DNA of 64,000 nt from positions 52,824,001 to 52,888,000 of the forward strand of contig OZ024745.1 in NCBI GenBank assembly GCA_964016885.1, written 5' to 3'. Of the stretch, positions 8,964 through 56,807 are shown in pieces (position 1 is the first letter of the stretch; each line of letters opens with the position of its first letter). The notes beneath the pieces are model-generated. The model worked only from the letters and a program-made list of their open reading frames with translations. It had not been told where the DNA came from and ran no database searches. This DNA is from Eledone cirrhosa (Eukaryota). The translations under genes were made by a program, and so were the position numbers.

Positions 8964-9049
8964 AGCTTTTAAGCACACGTGTAGGTGAAAACACACATAT
9001 ATATATATATATATATATGTGTTTTCACCTACACGTGTGCTTAAAAGCT
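8964..9049. repeat. Palindrome centred on (TA)n
   Basis: AGCTTTTAAGCACACGTGTAGGTGAAAACAC-(AT)n-GTGTTTTCACCTACACGTGTGCTTAAAAGCT. Confidence 0.95.
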
Positions 9050-9181
9050 ATTAAGTTGTGCGTGTTGGACTGTTATTTCTGTTCAATACGCGCTTACCAC
9101 GTTTGACTGGCGGCGCACGAGGTGATAAATTCATCTTTCTGTGTGAACGTTGGCAAATAGTGTTTGTGACATTTAATTGCA

Positions 9182-9263
9182 ATCTCTCGCTGATGAAGGC
9201 CAGGATTATCTGTTACAAACACACTCAGGGCGAAACAGATTAGGGATAATCTGTCCGAGAGAT
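9182..9263 (+). ncRNA. Complete type I hammerhead ribozyme in a non-coding ~430-bp element (9050-9482)
   Basis: Stem I ATCTCTCG/CGAGAGAT (8 bp), CTGATGA 9190-9196, stem II GCC/GGC with a large loop, GAAA 9232-9235, stem III CAGATTA-GGGA-TAATCTG (7 bp), GTC cleavage triplet ending at 9255. Confidence 0.9.
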
Positions 9264-9479
9264 ATAATGGTTATTGAGGCGGTTTGTATTATGATAATAT
9301 ATTTTTATTTTCATTTTGTCATCCTGTCTGTTTCTTGGTTAAATATTTCAAGCATATGTGGTTTTTCAACCCTTGTAATTTTAGACACACGGTTTACTGT
9401 GTTTCTTACTATATATTGTTAATCGGCTCAGTATTTATTTGTACTTTATACTTAGAGCTTAATGGTTACAGGGTTCTAA

Positions 9480-9566
<87 letters not shown>

Positions 9567-9703
9567 GTGAGGTTTTTTTTTACAAAATGAAAAATAACCG
9601 AGGTATCCTACACGAGTGAAATGAAAGTATAAAGAAAAAAAGATGAAATCGAAAATGCAACTGGAGTCTTATTTTTTTTAAAGTATATATATTTATTTGG
9701 TTC

Positions 9704-9739
9704 CTTTACCGGTTTCGCAGTTCTTCTACTTTTCAAAAG
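9704..9739 (-). ncRNA. Minimal hammerhead, U3-A8 variant, within a pLTR-like repeat (9560-9760)
   Basis: Minus strand: CTT-TTGAAAA-GTAG-AAGAA-CTGC-GAA-ACCGGT-A^AAG, with palindromic stem III ACCGGT. Homologous to 56545-56710. Confidence 0.7.
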
Positions 9740-11077
9740 TAGAGTTGAGATGGAGGGTCTATATATATATATATGGGTAGCCTCGCTGCCGAAAGAAAAT
9801 GTTTTTTGTCTCTACAACAAATTACACATGTCAATATTTCTTAAGTCATAACATTTCATATAACATAAATATATTTTTATAAAGAAAGTTATGTCCAACA
9901 GCTCTAAGTAAAATACTATAAGACTATTGAAACCTCATTGCGAATCTGTAGAATGTTCCTGTGGATATTATTGCAGTTTTCTAATAATCATGTGAACTCT
10001 GATTATGCTTAATGTTTTCTACGTTGTTCGATGTAATTTTATCAATATTTGTCTGCTGAAATAGCTACACTAATGCTACTATTGTGCACCATTACTCCTT
10101 CACTTCTTCTTAGCTCAATGTAATTCGTATATTCTGTGTTAATGCATCTCAATGTACATTATCTAATTATTTTTTTATGGTCCTTTTAGATAGTGGAATG
10201 TTATTGGAAGCGGGCTCTTTTGTTATTTCTCATAAGTGTTCCATTATTTAGAGCCTCCTAAGACTTGTTCTAATAGATTTTTGACGGCGTGATAATCCAT
10301 ATACTTCTTCATTGTTTTGAAGAAAGTACTTGCAAAAATATCAGGAATAATTGTCGAAGAAGAACATAAGCAACAGGATGGAAATAATGTTATACGTTGA
10401 GGAAGAGAAACGGGAAGAATATGAGACAACAGATCTATGGAAAATATTACGATATAAATTTACTTATTCAGAATTTAAGGTATATTAAAATTGTTGACAT
10501 TCATGACGAAATACAGAGATTCCTTGAAATGAAGTTGCGTTGGCATTTTCACAAAGTAATACGAGGTAAATCATGATAAAATTAACGATTTTCTAAGAAG
10601 ATTACTTATCCTAAACTATAATTGATTATCAGTTACAAAATGATGTCTTCGAAAGTATAAATTAAAGTAACATTTCGCCGAAGGATAATACATGGAGGTA
10701 GCAACCAGCAATTTACTGTATATAACCTCAGACATTATTGAACAAATTTGTAATAAATGGATTCTTTGGCGGACTACGGTAAAGGTATCGGAGAATTTTG
10801 AATCATATTTGACGTTGATCAATATGACATTTTTAAATCGGTGTTACGTGTGTACACATCGTTGGACAGTTTCTGTACATATCATTTGTACTACGAGAAG
10901 ATGTTGCTGCATTATCACATAATCCTACTTTAGAGAAAAAAGAACATAATTACTTTGGACCAAGGCCAGCTCCAGACTCTCTGGCACCCTAGGAAGGTTG
11001 ATATCAATTTCAAAGTTTATAAACGACTAAACCATCTGTCACCGGTTGGGTACGAGTAATCTAGTAATATATATATA

Positions 11078-13305: not shown

Positions 13306-16300
13306 CTACAGGCTGATATAGAGAGAAGGCCCATTCACTCGGGCCATTCTCGCTACTTTCACCCACCTTTCATAAAACTTGCTGGGGTAGAGCACCTCTC
13401 TCTCCATTCTGATCTTTCTTCTAAAGTGGTACTTGAAAAAAAAGACCAGTTGTTGGCCGGAGAGAAAGGTGTCTGACCTCAGCCCTTTCAACCTTGTCCA
13501 CCATACAACTTCTTTCGCCATAGCTATCACACAGAGGAAAACCGCCTCTCCTTCGTTTTTGAAAGGGGAGGCGGTTTGATCGTGACAATGTTCTCGGTGG
13601 TCAACCGGATTTGTCCCACCCGCGACAGTAGTCGTTCCACATAGCCCCACAGGTCAGCAACGCCCGGGCAGTGTACGAATGCGTGTGCGACGGTTTTCTC
13701 GTCACGCACGCATCTCGGAAAGATATTCGAGGGGTCCCTACCCGGGTGCCCGTGTCTGTAGAGCTTGTCCCGAACGGGTAGAGCTCCTCGGTAACATTGC
13801 CAAGCCAGGGACTTTTGGAAGTTGTCCATCGGTCTCGGGCCAAACGTCCTACCGAACAGACTGGCCAGCTCGTCTTCCTCCATGCGCAGAGCCTCTCCGA
13901 GAGCCTCGTCGCACTTACTGCCCACCAACCCTCTATAGAATGTTGAGGTTGAGTCTCCACTGATTGCCGGATCCGCTTGCCAGAGGGCCGTGAGCGCCTG
14001 GGCATATTCAATGTGCCAGTCGCCCACTTTTCTCGGTCTTTGCTTGACTCAGGATTGCAGCTCCGTGAGTGAGACGAGTCTCGGAAAGGCTCGCCTCACA
14101 AACAGGGCCCACACCGGCTGACCGGTGAGGAATACCTGGAGGTGCCGTAGCCTTAATGCGTGTCTACGCATCGTCAGCCACGGCATCCCCAGCCCTCCGT
14201 TCGAAGGGTGTTGACAGCAGATGGATCTTCTCACCAAAGGAGCCCGCTTCTTCCTAAGAAATCAGAAGAGCGCGCGCTCCATTTTGGCGAGTGTTTTCTC
14301 TGGGCAAGGCACGACGGTCAAGCGGTAGTAGATGACGGACGCTATATAAGCGTTCGCCACCTCCGCTCGACCTTTCAGGGATAGTTTGCAATCGGCCCAC
14401 TTCTGGGCGAGTGCAAACACCTTACCCGTTACCGCGTCCCAGTTTTTCTCCACCTGGAGGTCCGGTCCAAACCAGACCCCGAGCAGCTTCACCGGTCCCT
14501 CGGTCCAGCGTCCGACGATGCCGTCGGTGGGAATCGTTTTGCCCCACCACGTCCCGAGTTGCAAACCGACGGACTTGTCCCGGTTCAGCTTGGCTCCTGT
14601 GAACCTTTCATATTCCTCCAGTAAGGTGCCGATCTGCCCGATTTCCGAGGTGCACGACACCATTACTGTCACGTCATCTGCGTAGGCCGACACCGCTTTC
14701 CGCAATCCCGGTTCCAAGGGGATGCCCTGCAACAGCTCCAGCTTCCGCAGTAGTGGCTCGAGAGCCAGCACATACAGGAGGGAGGAGAGTGGGCATCCCT
14801 GTCGGATGGATCGTGTGATTTGGAACAGCTCCGAGAGGTAGCCGTTCACCTTGACCCTCGAGCAGGTGTTGCTGCTGTGCATTGCAGCAATCCAGCCATT
14901 GAAAACGGGACCGAAGCCTGCCGCTGCGAGCACCGCATCCAGGTACCGATGGTAAACCCTATCGAACGCCTTGAAATTGATCCAAGTTGATCAGGGCCCC
15001 ACCAAAGCCGGGTTCGTTCCCTACCCTCTCTACGATGTATCGCATGAGGTGGGGGTTGTCGTGTATGGACCTGGACGGGATTGCGCATGTCTGCGCTTCT
15101 CCCACCAGGTTCCCGACGACAAGCGCCAACCTCTTCGCTAACACGTTGGCCAAAATCTTTAACTCTGTGTTTAGCAGAGTTATGGGCCTGAAGTTATCTA
15201 TGTCATCCCCCTTGTTCTCGTCCTTCCTCACCAGCGTGACTACGCCCTTGCTTACAGAACTGGGAATTCACCCGTTCTGTTGCCAGTTGCAGTAGACCGC
15301 CTCGAGGAGACTGGAGAACAAACCCGGCATCGCTACATAAAGTTCGTATGATAGACCATCGAGACCCGGAGATTTGCTTTTGCCGCATTGGCTCAGCGCT
15401 TCCCCTATTTCAGCGGCTGAAATCGGCCTCTCGCAGGATTTCATCTCCTCGTCCGAGAGCCGCGCCAGACCGTCGAGGTCTGGACCGAAATACATGGCCC
15501 CACCCGGCCCGCCGCCAATCCCGAACAGGTTCAAGTATCACGCGTCCATCCTGGTCCTTCAAAGACCGAATCGTGGACTTGTTTCCACTTTTTGCCTATG
15601 TCACTCGGGCCCAGCTAACAGCTTTGGCTCCCTCATTACCCAGAGCACGTATTTTACTCCTGGCAACGCAGCCCTCGTGCTTCGCATCAAAGAACTGGTC
15701 TAGGGCCGTTCAAGACGCCAGCAAGCCGGCCACGTTGCCACTCCTAATCGCCTCTTCTACTCTATTTGTTAATTCCCTTTCAGTTCTATTCCTATCTGAT
15801 GCTAATACCCGACTAAAACCTATCGATTCTATTCTAATTTCTCTCTTGAGAGAGACCCACCACCTGCTGTTGACAATTGCCCCCGTCAAACGCTGCTTAA
15901 CTAGTGTGCTAATCCGCTTACTATAAGCTTTGTTTGTCGGTAAAGACATGTTTAGCTTCCAGTAACCGGGTCCCTGTCTATGAGTTCTATCAAGGTTTAC
16001 CACTCCGGTCACCAACTTGTGATCCGAATAGTCAACCATGAACATTCGTGGACAGCTTAATATGTCCCTATCCTTATTTCTAACTAGGAACCTATCTAGG
16101 TACCACCTAGATTTTCTGCTGCGATTACTCAACGTCCACCGTGGCACAGTCGGAAAATCTAGTCGATATCTATCAGCCGATTAATCGTTTGAGGCTGTTA
16201 CACCCCCCTCTATCGGGACATGCCCCTACATAGTCCCAACGTGCATCCAGGATACCATTCCAGTCCCCCACTAAAAGCAAGGAGCGAGACGTTCCCAGGA

Positions 16301-28884: not shown

Positions 28885-29059
28885 TTATCAGCAGCACTCA
28901 CATGGTCTTAGTATTGAGGTGGTATGTAAACATATACAATATGTTTATATATATCAAGCATACATATGATACGTTGTATATTAAGCTGTGGTCCTTTCAC
29001 AGCTACGCCAGTAAATGTGAGAAAACAACTTCCATCTCAAGCTATCTCATTCACCTTCA
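28369..29059. repeat. Diverged ~190-bp inverted duplication enclosing an HHR-derived palindrome
   Basis: 28369-28562 is the reverse complement of 28867-29059 with scattered mismatches (e.g. AAGTTGTTTTCTCAC vs GTGAGAAAACAACTT). Confidence 0.9.
28637..28822. mobile_element. Head-to-head inverted pair of hammerhead 3' halves with a one-sided tail
   Basis: Near-perfect ~120-bp palindrome TAGGAACGAGTAGGACCCCGACGGCTGAGCTCAAGCCGTTTCGACGGCTAATTCTGGACT-A-AGTCCAGAATTAGCCGTC...CTCGTTCCTA, plus a ~60-nt tail on the right. (TA)n on both sides. Homologous to 2162-2225. Confidence 0.85.
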
Positions 29060-29080
29060 TATATATATATATATGCATAT

Positions 29081-29125
<45 letters not shown>

Positions 29126-29203
29126 CTACAGTGTTTTAAGAATCAACGCATCAACGGTAAGGAAATCCGAAATCTCATCACAGCAAACGAGAGAGATGAC
29201 TTC

Positions 29204-32200
29204 ATGAGCGTCATCCGACGCGAAACGAAATATGCTCAAAACGAATGCTGTAGGCATTTCAAGAAGAAATTAGAATGGATGAATAAGAAAAAACTACAAG
29301 AAAGGAAAATCGAATATTCTCAAAAATACCCAGATAACATCGACAACATCCGTATGAGTGATGTAAAACTACCGGAAGAATTTACCAATGACCACACAGT
29401 AAATATCTATGGGAACACTTTAATCAGTGAACAAGAACAACAAATCCTAAAGTTACCACCAAAATTTGCCATCTACAAAAAGATTAATCCTATGGAATGC
29501 AAAACGGAGCTGGAAAAGTGTTTCACAAAAATACGTTGGAATGCAAAGGTAAACAACAACAACAATAATAACGGTAGTAGTAATATAAACAATAACTCTG
29601 GGTATAGAAATAACAGCCATAACCATAACAATGGCAGGAAAGTGAGAAATAGTGATAATGGTAATAATACTAGCGATAGACAGAACAACAACAACCACAA
29701 TAATAATAATAATAGAAACGTTAACCACAGACACAGCAACAGTGACCACAGTAGTAATAACGGTAACAATACGAACAACAACAACAACAATAACCACAGT
29801 GGTAATAATGGAAATAGTACATGTAGCAACATCAACAAAAACAAGAAACATAATAATAGTAACAACCACAATGGTAGAAATAGCAGTAACAACAACAACA
29901 ATAACGGTGAAGTAAACAACAATACATCTAGCAATCATAACAATAATAATATTAATGCTAAGGATAGAAACAACAACAACCACCATGATAACAATAATAG
30001 CAACACACACAACTATGACGATAGAAATAACGACAACCCCTTAGAGAAACTATTTTTCAACCCAGCTGACAAAACATATAAGATGGGTAATATCTATCCT
30101 ACGAGGTTACCCTTTAATAAAAGAGTTTGCATACCACAACAAATAGATGACGAGACGGAGGCACAGTTCACCATAGCTAGAAATAAGATTAGACAAGTAG
30201 TAGACAGGTACACTATGATACAGAGCAGACCAGAGGCCCAACAACTTGGGATAAAACCTGTAGAAGGCTTGGTTAGCCTCAAGCAGCGCACAAGGGATGG
30301 TGAGGTAGTGTGTCTACCCACAGATAAGTCTGGTAGGATGTCAATAGATAGCATGCCGAACTACATCGAGGCAATGCAACCCCACATCACCAACACGAGC
30401 GAAGTTGCACAACTAACACACGATGGGAGAGAAAAAATCCTCAACGCTCACATGATGATGTGGACTGACATCCTAAAGCCAAGCAGACGCACTGCCAACA
30501 ACTTCCAGGCGTCTAACAATGGCATACCACCCTTGTATGGGCTCCGCAAAGACCACAAGACAGTCGACGACCCGACAATAGGACCACCAACAAGACCTGT
30601 ATGCGGAGCTAATATAGCTAGCAACTACAGGATCTCCTACTTCCTCTCAATGGTTATACGCCCCATAATCAAGATGTCCCCAGATGTATGTGAAAGTACA
30701 GAGGACCTCCTCAGCAGAATCAGTGAGTGCAACAAAAACAGGAGCCTATCCAACTGCATAATAGGCAGCATGGATGTGGTGTCACTGTACCCATCCATTA
30801 ACATTGATTTTGCTGTGAAAAGATGTGTGGAGATGATCATTGAGAGTGAGGTGGAGTTCTGCGACGTCGACACAGACGAACTGGGCCTCCTACTTAGACT
30901 TACCTACGACACTGACTACCTAGACAGCCATGACCTTAGATGTTTCTGCCCTAGTAGACCTATAAGAGGTAGACCCCCCACCATAACCTCAATGGCTAAA
31001 AAGACTCCCATAGGAAGGTGGATTGGGTGGACCAAAGCTATACGGACCCCCCAAAACACTGATCAGGTAAGAAAAATGGTCGCACATGCAATAGGGGCTA
31101 GTATCAAAACTACCCTAAAGGGCCACATATTTAAGTTCAATGAGAAAATCTACACCCAAAATGAGGGAGCAGCCATCGGCGTCAGCATAGCTGGCGATGT
31201 TGCCAACCTTTTCATGGTATGGTGGGAAAGGAGACTTAAAGATCTCCTTAATGAAAGCTCCATAGACCTCATCATGTACTCTCGTTATGTAGACGATATC
31301 AATATAGTTATAAGAACACCCCCACTAGAGAGCACTAACAAGTTTGATTTAGAACGTAGCACGATGGAAAGCATCCAGCAGATAGCTAATTCCATACACC
31401 AGAGTATAACTGTAACTATAGACTTCCCTTCCAAACACCCTAACAATAGACTACCTGTATTAGACACAGAACTCTGGATTAACACTATAGACGAGAGAGC
31501 CCAAATTCTCCACTCACACTATGCTAAACCCATGGCCTCCAAATACCTGATACTCAAAAACTCAGCAATGTCCAGTAGTGCTAAGTTTAATATTCTGATC
31601 GCAGATTTGGTACGAGTGATGAAGAATGTGTCCAGCATGTGCGACCCAACAGAAATGGAAGGACACATCCAACACTTCATCAACCGCATGCAGTTCTCTG
31701 GCTACAACCAAAGAGACAGAGTCAGAGTATACGAAGGAGCCATGGAAAAGTATAAGACCCTCATAGAACTGGACATGAAAGGAATTTGCCCACTATACAG
31801 GAGCAAATCATGGAATAGCTTAGATAGGGCTAGACATAAGATAGGGAAGGCCACATCATGGTACGACAACCAGAGATATCAGAGTGTCATGTTTGTGGAC
31901 GCCACCCCTGGAGGGAAATTAGCTAACCAGTGTAGAAAGGCCCTGAGAAAGACCCACTTAAAAATAAAGGTGGTAGAAAAGCCAGGAACCACCATAAAAT
32001 CCCTGATCAGCAAAACCTACCCTTTTAAGAAAACCCACTGTACCAATAGGAAATGTATCATATGTAAGGTGAACCCCCGGATAAACTGTAAAACTAGAAA
32101 CGTAGTCTATAGCATAAGATGTACAGAGGGTACTTGCAGAAACACGACAACAACATACATAGGTGAGACAGCTCGTAGCATAGGTGAAAGGATAGACCAA

Positions 32201-32443
32201 CACTGGGGGGAACTAAAAGGACGAAAAAACGGGTCAGTACTATACGAACATGCTAGACAACATCATGACGGTAACATAGACAACATAGAAATTAGAATAA
32301 TATCTAAACATAGGAATGACCCAGCAGATAGGCAAATCAGAGAGGCCAGTGAAATAGAAATTAGAAGACCAAAGCTAAACAGAAAGAATGAGTGGAACAA
32401 CAACAACACCCAAACAAACAACACTGACCTAAGAGAAGTATAA
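29204..32443 (+). CDS. PLE reverse transcriptase with C-terminal GIY-YIG endonuclease (1079 aa) and Asn-rich insert
   Basis: PTDKSGR, LYGLRKDHK, PTRPVC, SMDVVSLYPSI, YTQNEGAAIG, YSRYVDDI, LPVLD, Cys-rich linker CTNRKCIIC..C, and VVYSIRC...C...YIGETAR...R...H. Confidence 0.95.
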   Translation: MSVIRRETKYAQNECCRHFKKKLEWMNKKKLQERKIEYSQKYPDNIDNIRMSDVKLPEEFTNDHTVNIYGNTLISEQEQQILKLPPKFAIYKKINPMECKTELEKCFTKIRWNAKVNNNNNNNGSSNINNNSGYRNNSHNHNNGRKVRNSDNGNNTSDRQNNNNHNNNNNRNVNHRHSNSDHSSNNGNNTNNNNNNNHSGNNGNSTCSNINKNKKHNNSNNHNGRNSSNNNNNNGEVNNNTSSNHNNNNINAKDRNNNNHHDNNNSNTHNYDDRNNDNPLEKLFFNPADKTYKMGNIYPTRLPFNKRVCIPQQIDDETEAQFTIARNKIRQVVDRYTMIQSRPEAQQLGIKPVEGLVSLKQRTRDGEVVCLPTDKSGRMSIDSMPNYIEAMQPHITNTSEVAQLTHDGREKILNAHMMMWTDILKPSRRTANNFQASNNGIPPLYGLRKDHKTVDDPTIGPPTRPVCGANIASNYRISYFLSMVIRPIIKMSPDVCESTEDLLSRISECNKNRSLSNCIIGSMDVVSLYPSINIDFAVKRCVEMIIESEVEFCDVDTDELGLLLRLTYDTDYLDSHDLRCFCPSRPIRGRPPTITSMAKKTPIGRWIGWTKAIRTPQNTDQVRKMVAHAIGASIKTTLKGHIFKFNEKIYTQNEGAAIGVSIAGDVANLFMVWWERRLKDLLNESSIDLIMYSRYVDDINIVIRTPPLESTNKFDLERSTMESIQQIANSIHQSITVTIDFPSKHPNNRLPVLDTELWINTIDERAQILHSHYAKPMASKYLILKNSAMSSSAKFNILIADLVRVMKNVSSMCDPTEMEGHIQHFINRMQFSGYNQRDRVRVYEGAMEKYKTLIELDMKGICPLYRSKSWNSLDRARHKIGKATSWYDNQRYQSVMFVDATPGGKLANQCRKALRKTHLKIKVVEKPGTTIKSLISKTYPFKKTHCTNRKCIICKVNPRINCKTRNVVYSIRCTEGTCRNTTTTYIGETARSIGERIDQHWGELKGRKNGSVLYEHARQHHDGNIDNIEIRIISKHRNDPADRQIREASEIEIRRPKLNRKNEWNNNNTQTNNTDLREV

Positions 32444-32955: not shown

Positions 32956-32999
<44 letters not shown>

Positions 33000-33113
33000 G
33001 TTTGAATATGTGTAATAAAGCCAAAACAATGCAGTTATGGACATAGAAAAAGGAATGCAATAGTGAAAGATATTGATGAGAATTCGTCTATCACCTTGAA
33101 TTTATTTAAATGT

Positions 33114-33148
33114 CCTTAACTTTCGAGATAATATCTCTTCTTCGGAGG
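33114..33148 (-). ncRNA. Minimal hammerhead-like motif, U4C variant (left arm)
   Basis: CCT-CCGAAGA-A-GAGAT-ATT-ATCTC-GAAA-GTTA^AGG. Confidence 0.6.
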
Positions 33149-33556
33149 GAAGTAAAGGTCTCAAACCAGCGTCTTTAAATCTCTAGCCAAGCCATGCTGA
33201 CCGGAAATAGTATAGAGTATCTGTTCTAACTCTAATATCAAAGAATTAAAATTAGGTGGATAAAGAGTAGTCTCCCTTTAAGAGGGGTTTGTTTAGGGTT
33301 TTTTTTATTTTTTTTTTTATTTCATATACGTGCCTGTATATGTGTGTGGGAGAATGCATGAAGGTGTAGGTATGTGGGTGTGTGTGTGTGAGTGTTGAAA
33401 GATAGGTCTAATCGTAAAAGTGGGGGGTAGGTGTTATCTGGTGTTAGAACTGGTTTTGTGTGTGTATATGTGTGAGAGAGAAAAAGTGGAGGTGTAAGCG
33501 TGTGTGTGTGCGCGTGCGTGTGTGTGGGGTGTGTAAAAATGGGGCTAGAGGCCCTA

Positions 33557-34335
33557 TCAGGTTATAAATTGGGTGTTGAGCTCTAGTCTATTATTGATTG
33601 GTGGAAGTGTTCTATCTATAATAAGTGCTTCCTTAATTCTAAGATTGCCGAGGTTTCTTTCCTTAGTTTCTATCCTAACTGTTATGTTTTTATCGGTGTT
33701 TTTGCATTTAACTAGGTGTTTCTTAAATGAGGAAGCGTTAGTATTGAGGTGTTCTTTTATTCTTATGTGGAGTGGTCTGGTGGTGCTCCCTACGTAGAAG
33801 TTGTTGCATTTGTCACACTCTAATCTGTATACTACGTAAGCCTGGTGGCATAGGTCTGTGTCGTTGATGGGGCAGTTGGCTAGTCTGCAGCAGTTGTCAT
33901 GTCTGGTGGAGTGTCTCTTGGCCAGCCGTCCGCGCAGAGAAGGACCCGAGTGGGCCAGTTGGATATCCAGTCCCTCTCGTCTGATGGCTCTGCGGATGGC
34001 TGTTGTTGTTTCTTCACTGAAGTGTGGGAGCTTCAGGAAGCAAGTGTTAGTGCCTCGGGTGTGGTGTCCTCTGTTCTTTCTGGCACGGTTTGTGGTGGAT
34101 GTCGTGTATCCGTTCAGTTTGAGTACTTCCAGGAAATGTGTGGTGTGTGTGTCTCGGTCTCTGGCGTCGGTGCATTTGTTCTTGATACGTGCCAGTTCGT
34201 TCTTTATGTATCCGAACTTGGGAGGGCCGATCTGAAATGTACGAACAGGTCCCTGCTGGCGGATTTTTTATAGAAGCAGGTGTGGATGTTGCCTTCCTCT
34301 GTTACCCTGAGTTGGAAGTCCAGTAGGGATAGGGA
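33557..34335 (-). pseudogene. PLE RT thumb + GIY-YIG C-terminal fragment
   Basis: Manual translation: LDFQLRVTEEGNIHTCFYKKSASRDLFVHFRSALP (frameshift) ...FLEVLKLNGY...LKLPHFSE...CRLANCPINDTDLCHQAYVVYRLECDKCNNFYVGSTTRPLHIRIKEH...IKEALII...INNRLE. Confidence 0.9.
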
Positions 34336-34873
34336 TCCGGATTAGGATAGAAACTAAGGAAAGAAACCTCGGCAATCTTAGAATTAAGGAAGCACTTATT
34401 ATAGAGAGAACACATCCACCAATCAATAATAGACTAGAGCTCAACACCCAATTTATAACCTGATAGGGCCTCTAGCCCCATTTTTACACGCCCCACACAC
34501 ACGCACGCGCACACACACACGCTTACACCTCCACTTTTTCTCTCTCACACATACACACACAAAACCAGTTCTAACACCAGATAACACCTACCCCCCACTT
34601 TTACGATTAGACCTATCTTTCAACACTCACACACACACACCCACATACCTACACCTTCATGCATTCTCCCACACACATATACAGGCACGTATATAAAATT
34701 TAAAAAAAAAAAAAAAAAAAAACCCCTAAACAAACCCCTCTTAAAGGGAGACTACTCTTTATCCACCTAATTTTAATTCTTTGATATTAGAGTTAGAACA
34801 GATACTCTATACTATTTCCGGTCAGCATGGCTTGGCTAGAGATTTAAAGACGCTGGTTTGAGACCTTTACTTC

Positions 34874-34908
34874 CCTCCGAAGAAGAGATATTATCTCGAA
34901 AATTAAGG
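34874..34908 (+). ncRNA. Minimal hammerhead-like motif, U4C variant (right arm)
   Basis: CCT-CCGAAGA-A-GAGAT-ATT-ATCTC-GAAA-ATTA^AGG. Confidence 0.6.
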
Positions 34909-35067
34909 ACATTTAAATAAATTCAAGGTGATAGACGAATTCTCATCAATATCTTTCACTATTGCATTCCTTTTTCTATGTCCATAACTGCATTGTTTTG
35001 GCCTTATTACACATATTCAAACGTTTATACCTCATTACACAATGCTTCAAGTGAACTATAACCTCCT

Positions 35068-35202
<135 letters not shown>

Positions 35203-56289: not shown

Positions 56290-56807
<518 letters not shown>

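Follow-up and report, generated by a model that had tools for sequence, protein, structure and literature searches.

Loop II of a predicted type I hammerhead at positions 9160–9263 of the window (the whole 64,000-nucleotide stretch of Eledone cirrhosa DNA analysed here) is long, and most of it is complementary to the leader that lies 5' of stem I. The same duplex occurs at the same place in families of very different sequence, and for this reason the contact is very likely real and under selection. On balance we favour the view that loop II and the leader form, in cis, a two-part extended pseudoknot with frayed ends that pre-organises the ribozyme for cleavage. The leader contact may also help to time the cutting of the RNA circles of the element.

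The window sequence contains a complete hammerhead core—CUGANGA, GAAA and NUH—with all three stems, stem I being open as in type I (Table 1). Cleavage is predicted to take place directly 3' of C9255. Two-sided changes are found at seven of the eight pairs of stem I and at four of the eight pairs of stem III. In family A, to which the window copy belongs (the labels A to M are our own), stem II is GCCC/GGGC, with the G10.1–C11.1 closing pair present. The window copy has G9199 in place of the C of other copies, and this leaves either a G·G mismatch or a register-shifted, 3-bp stem II behind a 2-nt insert. A genome-wide pattern for any base other than C at this site finds two places, the window copy and one with T. 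Families E and F normally have inserts of 2–3 nt there, so the G9199 copy need not be dead. No Rfam family reaches its gathering score in the window, and at E values up to 10 there are five weak matches, none to a hammerhead family; the long loop II is probably to blame. A hidden second hammerhead that uses the leader as its stem I is ruled out, since no CUGANGA occurs 3' of the leader.

Table 1. Predicted parts of the ribozyme and of the element that carries it (window coordinates).
Feature	Positions	Strand	Remarks
Single 5'-truncated copy of the 467-bp tandem non-coding retrozyme unit, family A	9046-9490	+	3' end enters (TA)n target
Inverted duplication, ~40 bp of flank around TA run	8964-9049	.	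5' junction of insertion
Leader, outer strand	9160-9171	+	12 bp with 9211-9222; outer 8 bp nearly invariant, families A-E
Leader, inner strand	9174-9178	+	5 bp with 9204-9208; ends 3 nt 5' of stem I
Stem I, 5' strand	9182-9189	+	pairs with 9256-9263
Core CUGAUGA (9190-9196) and additional A9197	9190-9197	+	
Stem II, 5' strand	9198-9201	+	pairs with 9228-9231
Loop II, 26 nt	9202-9227	+	2-nt linker; 19-nt leader-complementary strand, 9204-9222; 5-nt return linker, 9223-9227
Stem II, 3' strand (9228-9231) and GAAA core (9232-9235)	9228-9235	+	
Stem III, 8 bp (9235-9242/9247-9254), and GUC triplet	9235-9255	+	
Stem I, 3' strand	9256-9263	+	
Internal TA run	9411-9421	+	second preferred 3' end, 26/60 arms
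(TA)n target at main 3' end	9483-9560	.	31/60 arms end here

An earlier, sequence-only reading of this DNA had paired 9160–9171, GTGTTTGTGACA, with 9211–9222, TGTTACAAACAC, over 12 bp, and had matched loop II to stem III in two ways: over 8 bp, GATTATCT (9204–9211) with GGATAATC (9244–9251), and over 7 bp, ATCTGTT (9208–9214) with AACAGAT (9234–9240). All three pairings are there, the first with a single G–U, at 9168/9214. Absent from that reading is the inner 5-bp helix, which already uses GATTA, the very segment that was claimed to invade stem III. The whole duplex comprises the outer 12 bp, a 2 × 2 pyrimidine loop, and the 5 bp beside stem I; it amounts to 17 bp and covers 19 nt of the 26-nt loop II. 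Elsewhere in the window, five of 1587 stretches of 40 nt can form a helix of at least 12 bp with loop II. Chance helices of at least 8 bp occur in 159 of 2646 24-nt stretches, and of at least 7 bp in 454 of 2646. Helices of these sizes are common by chance, and the two stem III matches are thus weak taken alone. The leader duplex is worth –20.0 kcal, which none of 300 shuffles equals; the loop II/stem III duplex is worth –10.0 kcal, equalled by 38 of 300.

About a dozen related families are present in the one genome. Families B–F are progressively diverged from A (unit identity ~85–88% for B, ~73–75% for C), and families G, I, J, K, H and M have little sequence in common with A beyond the core. 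Within A–F, loop II hardly varies, and it is the leader that takes almost every change: A–U becomes G–U at 9169, 9175 and 9176; C or U stands opposite G at 9178; and C–E have mismatches at 9168–9169 that affect one or two of the 12 pairs. Family F forms 12 Watson–Crick pairs around a bulge. The bases just 5' of 9160, and those at 9179–9181, vary freely in A–F. The leaders and loops of G and H differ from those of A–F, yet they are again complementary to each other, with a short inner helix by stem I and a longer outer one. Families G–K (loci L227–L295; G alone yields 1856 search candidates) have A·C in place of G10.1–C11.1, a stem II of 2 bp and a GUA site, and their hammerheads would represent a natural core variant. 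Loop III of A/B is the reverse complement of the family C loop minus one base (L076 compared with L004), which suggests a hairpin micro-inversion.

When representatives of the families are compared, the duplex is found to be worth –17.0 to –29.8 kcal, with no more than 5 of 300 shuffles equal, in 15 of 16; a family K copy has no significant duplex (–9.5 kcal; 65 of 300 shuffles equal). The duplex spans about 16–22 bp, loop II is 26–36 nt long, and the inner helix starts 0–4 nt from stem I and 0–3 nt from stem II. Cross-pairing of the representatives shows that leaders pair best with the loop II of their own group, except that H1 and H2 leaders reach –14 to –19.5 kcal with the loops of A–F.

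Covariation was assessed on an alignment, made by sequence only, of the window copy and 26 of 91 listed copies picked to span the families. Of the cells in the 17 duplex pairs, 80% are paired vs 68% after shuffling, and the covariation score is 0.359 vs 0.161, with none of 500 shuffles as high, although six H and M rows lie out of register and kinship inflates the test, as related sequences can beat such shuffles without structure. Partners slid out of place pair in 34–49% of cells. Two-sided changes occur in eight of the 17 pairs, a count not above that of shuffles (143/500). Family H was analysed on its own in 19 of 25 copies (four with truncated or inverted leaders, one near-duplicate and one family M row being omitted): the two helices are 86% and 93% paired, and the outer helix includes one two-sided change, U–A in nine copies and C–G in seven. 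Family M keeps the duplex in four of five copies. On 23 rows, RNAalifold recovers stems I and III but misses the leader helix. Within A–F we found no two-sided change, and a search for a compensatory pair at 9161/9221 yielded three leader variants and seven loop variants that never occur in one copy. Conserved and covarying across families of very different sequence, the proposed contact between leader and loop II holds up well.

How might such a contact serve the ribozyme? In the pseudoknot that we favour, the leader would capture loop II during transcription as soon as 9222 emerges; predicted nascent folding makes the duplex the first to form, at that position. The result would be a hairpin whose 25-nt loop displays CUGAUGA together with the 5' strands of stems I and II, and onto which the 3' half (GGGC–GAAA–stem III–GUC–CGAGAGAU) would dock. 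The inner helix, of 5–6 bp, would join the tips of stems I and II, replacing the usual loop–loop contact; the outer helix would guard the long loop against misfolding, and a few of its end pairs (~2–3 in family A) would open so that the short return linker could reach. Stem I–stem II pseudoknots are known activators, occurring in ~40% of hammerheads and tested on one with a stem II of 1 bp, according to the accessible text of PMC3088659. The inner helix would occupy the place of these activating pseudoknots, as the available portions of PMC3088659 and PMC11300833 describe them.

Predicted energies put the leader-free hammerhead 1–8 kcal below the duplex fold in stability in families A–F, and 9–16 kcal below it in G and H, in which stem II has 2 bp plus A·C only. 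Since core and stems are conserved nevertheless, most of the duplex should persist in the active state. When the leader is included, nested folding loses stems I and II, but the method cannot represent pseudoknots. Rough pseudoknot energies, with an assumed penalty of +13 kcal, come within ~4 kcal of the closed hairpin in A–F and are 2–8 kcal worse than it in G and H. In straight A-form geometry, a model that leaves out bending at internal loops, the full duplex needs 66–78 Å and the linkers supply 24–84 Å, and the number of end pairs that need to open is 0–2 in D–F, 1–3 in A–C, 3–4 in G and 5–7 in H. Energies and geometry are borderline for a duplex that would coexist with stems I and II and raise the rate of cleavage.

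The same short linkers can be read in the opposite sense. The full duplex and the return linker might together block the closing of stem II within one unit, the hairpin loop of that unit instead supplying an enzyme half to the 3' half of its neighbour; multimers would then be cut by a swapped dimer, and monomer circles would stay intact. The return linker is only 4–10 nt long across the families, and the linkers fall short of the full duplex by 10–52 Å in A/B, C, G and H. The outermost pairs, those that would need to open, are among the best conserved in A–F, and stem III is stable (5–8 bp), so the usual dimer control by a weak stem III is missing. In satRPV (sBYDV), a plant-virus satellite with a short loop–loop helix, peripheral pairing between stems I and II is said to go with attenuated cleavage and a double hammerhead; the double hammerhead is reportedly required, and an alternative tertiary structure reportedly attenuates cleavage. 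If true, a leader clamp of 16–22 bp would be a new dimer control independent of stem III, and it would explain how animal retrozyme circles stay closed; the accessible part of PMC7229834 calls the block on the hammerhead in these circles unexplained. We nonetheless consider this reading unlikely. The linkers of D, E and F (8–10 nt) span or nearly span the duplex with 0–2 pairs to open, opening 2–3 pairs should cost only a few kcal, and the shortfalls come from a geometry that omits internal-loop bending.

We find it distinctly improbable that the duplex acts as an inhibitory rod of the kind seen in plant retrozymes and viroids, one that would have to be melted, perhaps by the PLE protein or a chaperone, for a hammerhead to form. 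A rod is the best nested fold of both linear and circular monomers, and a PLE hammerhead required its own protein for cleavage, in the available text of PMC11167929. In every family examined, however, the duplex leaves the core and the three stems untouched and stops at stems I and II. It would be simpler for a blocker to pair with the core or the stems themselves, and G and H hammerheads misfold in silico without the duplex.

The sequence-only reading had offered a switch: left unheld by the leader, loop II would invade stem III and so inactivate the ribozyme. Its 7-bp helix is indeed the predicted best fold of a leaderless RNA that ends at 9240, but it is gone by the time the RNA reaches 9254. 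Leaderless family A RNA is predicted to fold correctly as a hammerhead, stem III having a probability of ~0.97 in the ensemble and the two invading helices 0.00 and 0.01; the off-switch thus finds no support in the very family for which it was proposed, the invaded state making up no more than 1% of the ensemble. Invasion is more prominent elsewhere. Without the leader its probability is 0.40 in family C, and the leader cuts loop II invasion of GAAA/stem III from 0.40–0.95 to 0.00–0.09 in C, G and H, H3 being an exception that stands at 0.04 already without the leader; in G2 and I the leader fails to suppress invasion (0.78 and 0.88 with the leader). Besides the two matches in the window copy, TCTGT recurs in loop II of families A–E and G, and the duplex of loop II with stem III is better than shuffles in families C, D and E (0, 7 and 1 of 300 as good), but not in the other 13 of the 16 representatives (21–242 of 300). 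The 8-bp match is confined to A/B, where it apparently arose after the inversion of loop III, and the 7-bp match, broken in F, is missing from H and I. Neither helix gives a covariation signal: 0.170 vs 0.146 shuffled (29/500) for the 8-bp helix, 0.128 vs 0.106 (50/500) for the 7-bp one. Precursors and circles alike always carry the leader in cis; it would take an outside agent to produce a leaderless state, and no such state is evident in nature. We regard the switch as highly improbable. Plausibly, the leader prevents misfolding through registers that vary from family to family, rather than through one conserved switch helix.

Least credible of all is a role outside cleavage—compaction of the circle, recognition by reverse transcriptase or ligase, or an inverted motif at the DNA level, such as one of forkhead type. 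In its favour, the entire unit is strongly self-paired, and loop II of A–F is more invariant than pairing demands. Against it, the register to stems I and II is fixed across unrelated sequences, and family F, by holding its 12 pairs around the bulge though its leader 7-mer is broken, favours RNA pairing and disfavours a DNA motif.

Judged from its sequence, the element is a non-LTR retrozyme, built of tandem non-coding units with one type I hammerhead each. The spacing of arrays gives a repeat unit of 467 bp, rather than the ~430 nt first suggested; a further array has 7.2 copies of 457 bp, and unit spacing in other families is 463–556 bp. The unit has no LTR pair, no long ORF and a GC content below 50%, and none of 100 shuffles folds as well as its monomer (z –4.3). 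Search of the 3.0-Gb genome gave 1330 candidates, of which the 40 that were scored are 98–100% identical, with arrays at 467-bp spacing. The core pattern occurs at 237 places in the genome (control 0), and the broader family pattern at 520 places in the 3.0 Gb (control 1). Contigs from sequencing runs include a joint of 9490 to 9046; this is the tandem junction, and it is present in genomic arrays, too. Contigs of three runs coded X5, X6 and X7 (organisms B, C and D) contain low-depth pieces of the same families, through shared ancestry or carried-over DNA.

The ends of the copies are informative as to how they move. Among 60 complete arms, taken from loci L001–L060 and including a few duplicates, 57 stop at their 3' ends at two TA-linked sites ~70 nt apart, and 33 extend beyond a single unit. 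The 5' ends of the arms are scattered, and head-to-head pairs are frequent; in these loci, selected for a whole ribozyme, the 5' ends show no clustering at the cleavage site (one of 60 lies within 5 nt). In the window, the inverted copy of the flank meets the element at a short microhomology, and this 5' junction resembles what a template switch would leave once the target end had folded back and primed synthesis. The inverted 5'-truncated partner, the two 3' ends (a tail) and the (TA)n targets together point to mobilisation by PLEs. The arms match the layout described for Penelope-like elements in the accessible parts of PMC8557442, which covers the tail, the inverted truncated partner and the (TA)n targets, and of PMC11167929, which covers two internal start sites. 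Multimeric transcripts would be cut to monomers and circularised, and a Penelope-like reverse transcriptase/endonuclease, starting at two internal sites, would copy the circles into (TA)n targets; such copying would lead to tandem and head-to-head arrays. The retrozyme copies share this layout with a GIY-YIG PLE fragment of the window. One GIY-YIG peptide, compared by tblastn with the retrieved loci, gave four matches, counted wherever they lie relative to the element.

That PLE, at 32990–35070, is 5'-truncated, with a GIY-YIG frame at 33560–34267 on the minus strand, an inverted pLTR and TA-run ends; it also has a minimal hammerhead-like motif, whose core begins CCGA, not CUGA. Other features of the window are a 1140-codon stop-free frame at 29021–32443 (+), likely a retroelement, with an Asn-rich stretch and a weak RVT_1 match (E 2e-4, below the cut-off); an RVT_1 fragment at 14262–14990 (–; E 8e-15); and a 79% inverted repeat, 9483–9756 and 56548–56790, that adjoins the TA run of the element and is probably the end of another repeat. 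Elsewhere in the genome, an internally deleted family D unit (208 bp) is present at many sites (L101:1293–1600, L105–L128), inside a larger duplication and with several copies near contig ends. In L200 and L226 a family F copy comes immediately after the TA-run end of a family G copy, and such adjacency may reflect targets or a mobiliser common to the two families. Loci L286, L287 and L098:1053–1187 have another type of long-loop hammerhead, with a short palindromic stem III and a hairpin within loop II, and, in L286, a 6-bp match to the leader. This type is possibly an intermediate between minimal PLE hammerheads and the leader-clamped motif.

Several known systems resemble this one in part. 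The metazoan non-LTR retrozymes (Cervera and de la Pena 2020, PMC7229834; Li, Clavereau and Pollet 2026, bioRxiv 10.64898/2026.07.22.740005), as the available text of these sources presents them, likewise have tandem, low-GC non-coding units of a few hundred bp, each with a single type I hammerhead, as well as self-paired monomers and co-occurring PLEs. The motifs described in the accessible part of PMC7229834 have short loops with loop–loop contacts, or a weak stem III, and most animal circles are predicted there to leave the hammerhead free; the motif here differs in its loop II of 26–36 nt, paired to the 5' leader, and in its stable stem III. Minimal PLE hammerheads (Cervera and de la Pena 2014, PMC4209133) are also of type I, with an extra nucleotide between 9 and 10.1 and a PLE context. 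Their stem III is not stable, and it is through this stem that they cleave, as dimers, whereas here stem III is 5–8 bp. The earlier remark that the window hammerhead is unlike ordinary ones of this kind is supported. The A·C of families G–K, in place of G10.1–C11.1, sets these families apart from them, too.

Closest in principle are the pseudoknot-stabilised hammerheads. Those of Perreault et al. (2011, PMC3088659) have, in the accessible text, a Watson–Crick contact linking stems I and II that is found in all three hammerhead types and can support a very short stem II; their contacts are of 4–6 bp, whereas the contact here is in two parts, of about 16–22 bp, and leaves little of loop II unpaired. 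The crystal structure of a PK hammerhead (Zhan et al. 2024, PMC11300833) is alike in setting a loop II pseudoknot on a minimal stem II; as the available portion describes it, the partner is the loop of a separate hairpin (helix IV), joined by 6 bp, whereas here it is a linear leader, and the duplex is some three times longer. Our literature search, which covered part of the text of PMC7229834, found no type I hammerhead with a loop II of 26–36 nt almost wholly paired to its leader, nor a long two-part contact spread over about a dozen families, nor the A·C variant. These families, some of them with A·C, form a natural covariation series for peripheral helices that support a weak core, and they make an open question testable, with constructs of less than 150 nt: what prevents the re-cutting of animal retrozyme circles? 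Retrozymes and pseudoknotted hammerheads are known already; apparently new is the long, two-part contact with the leader.
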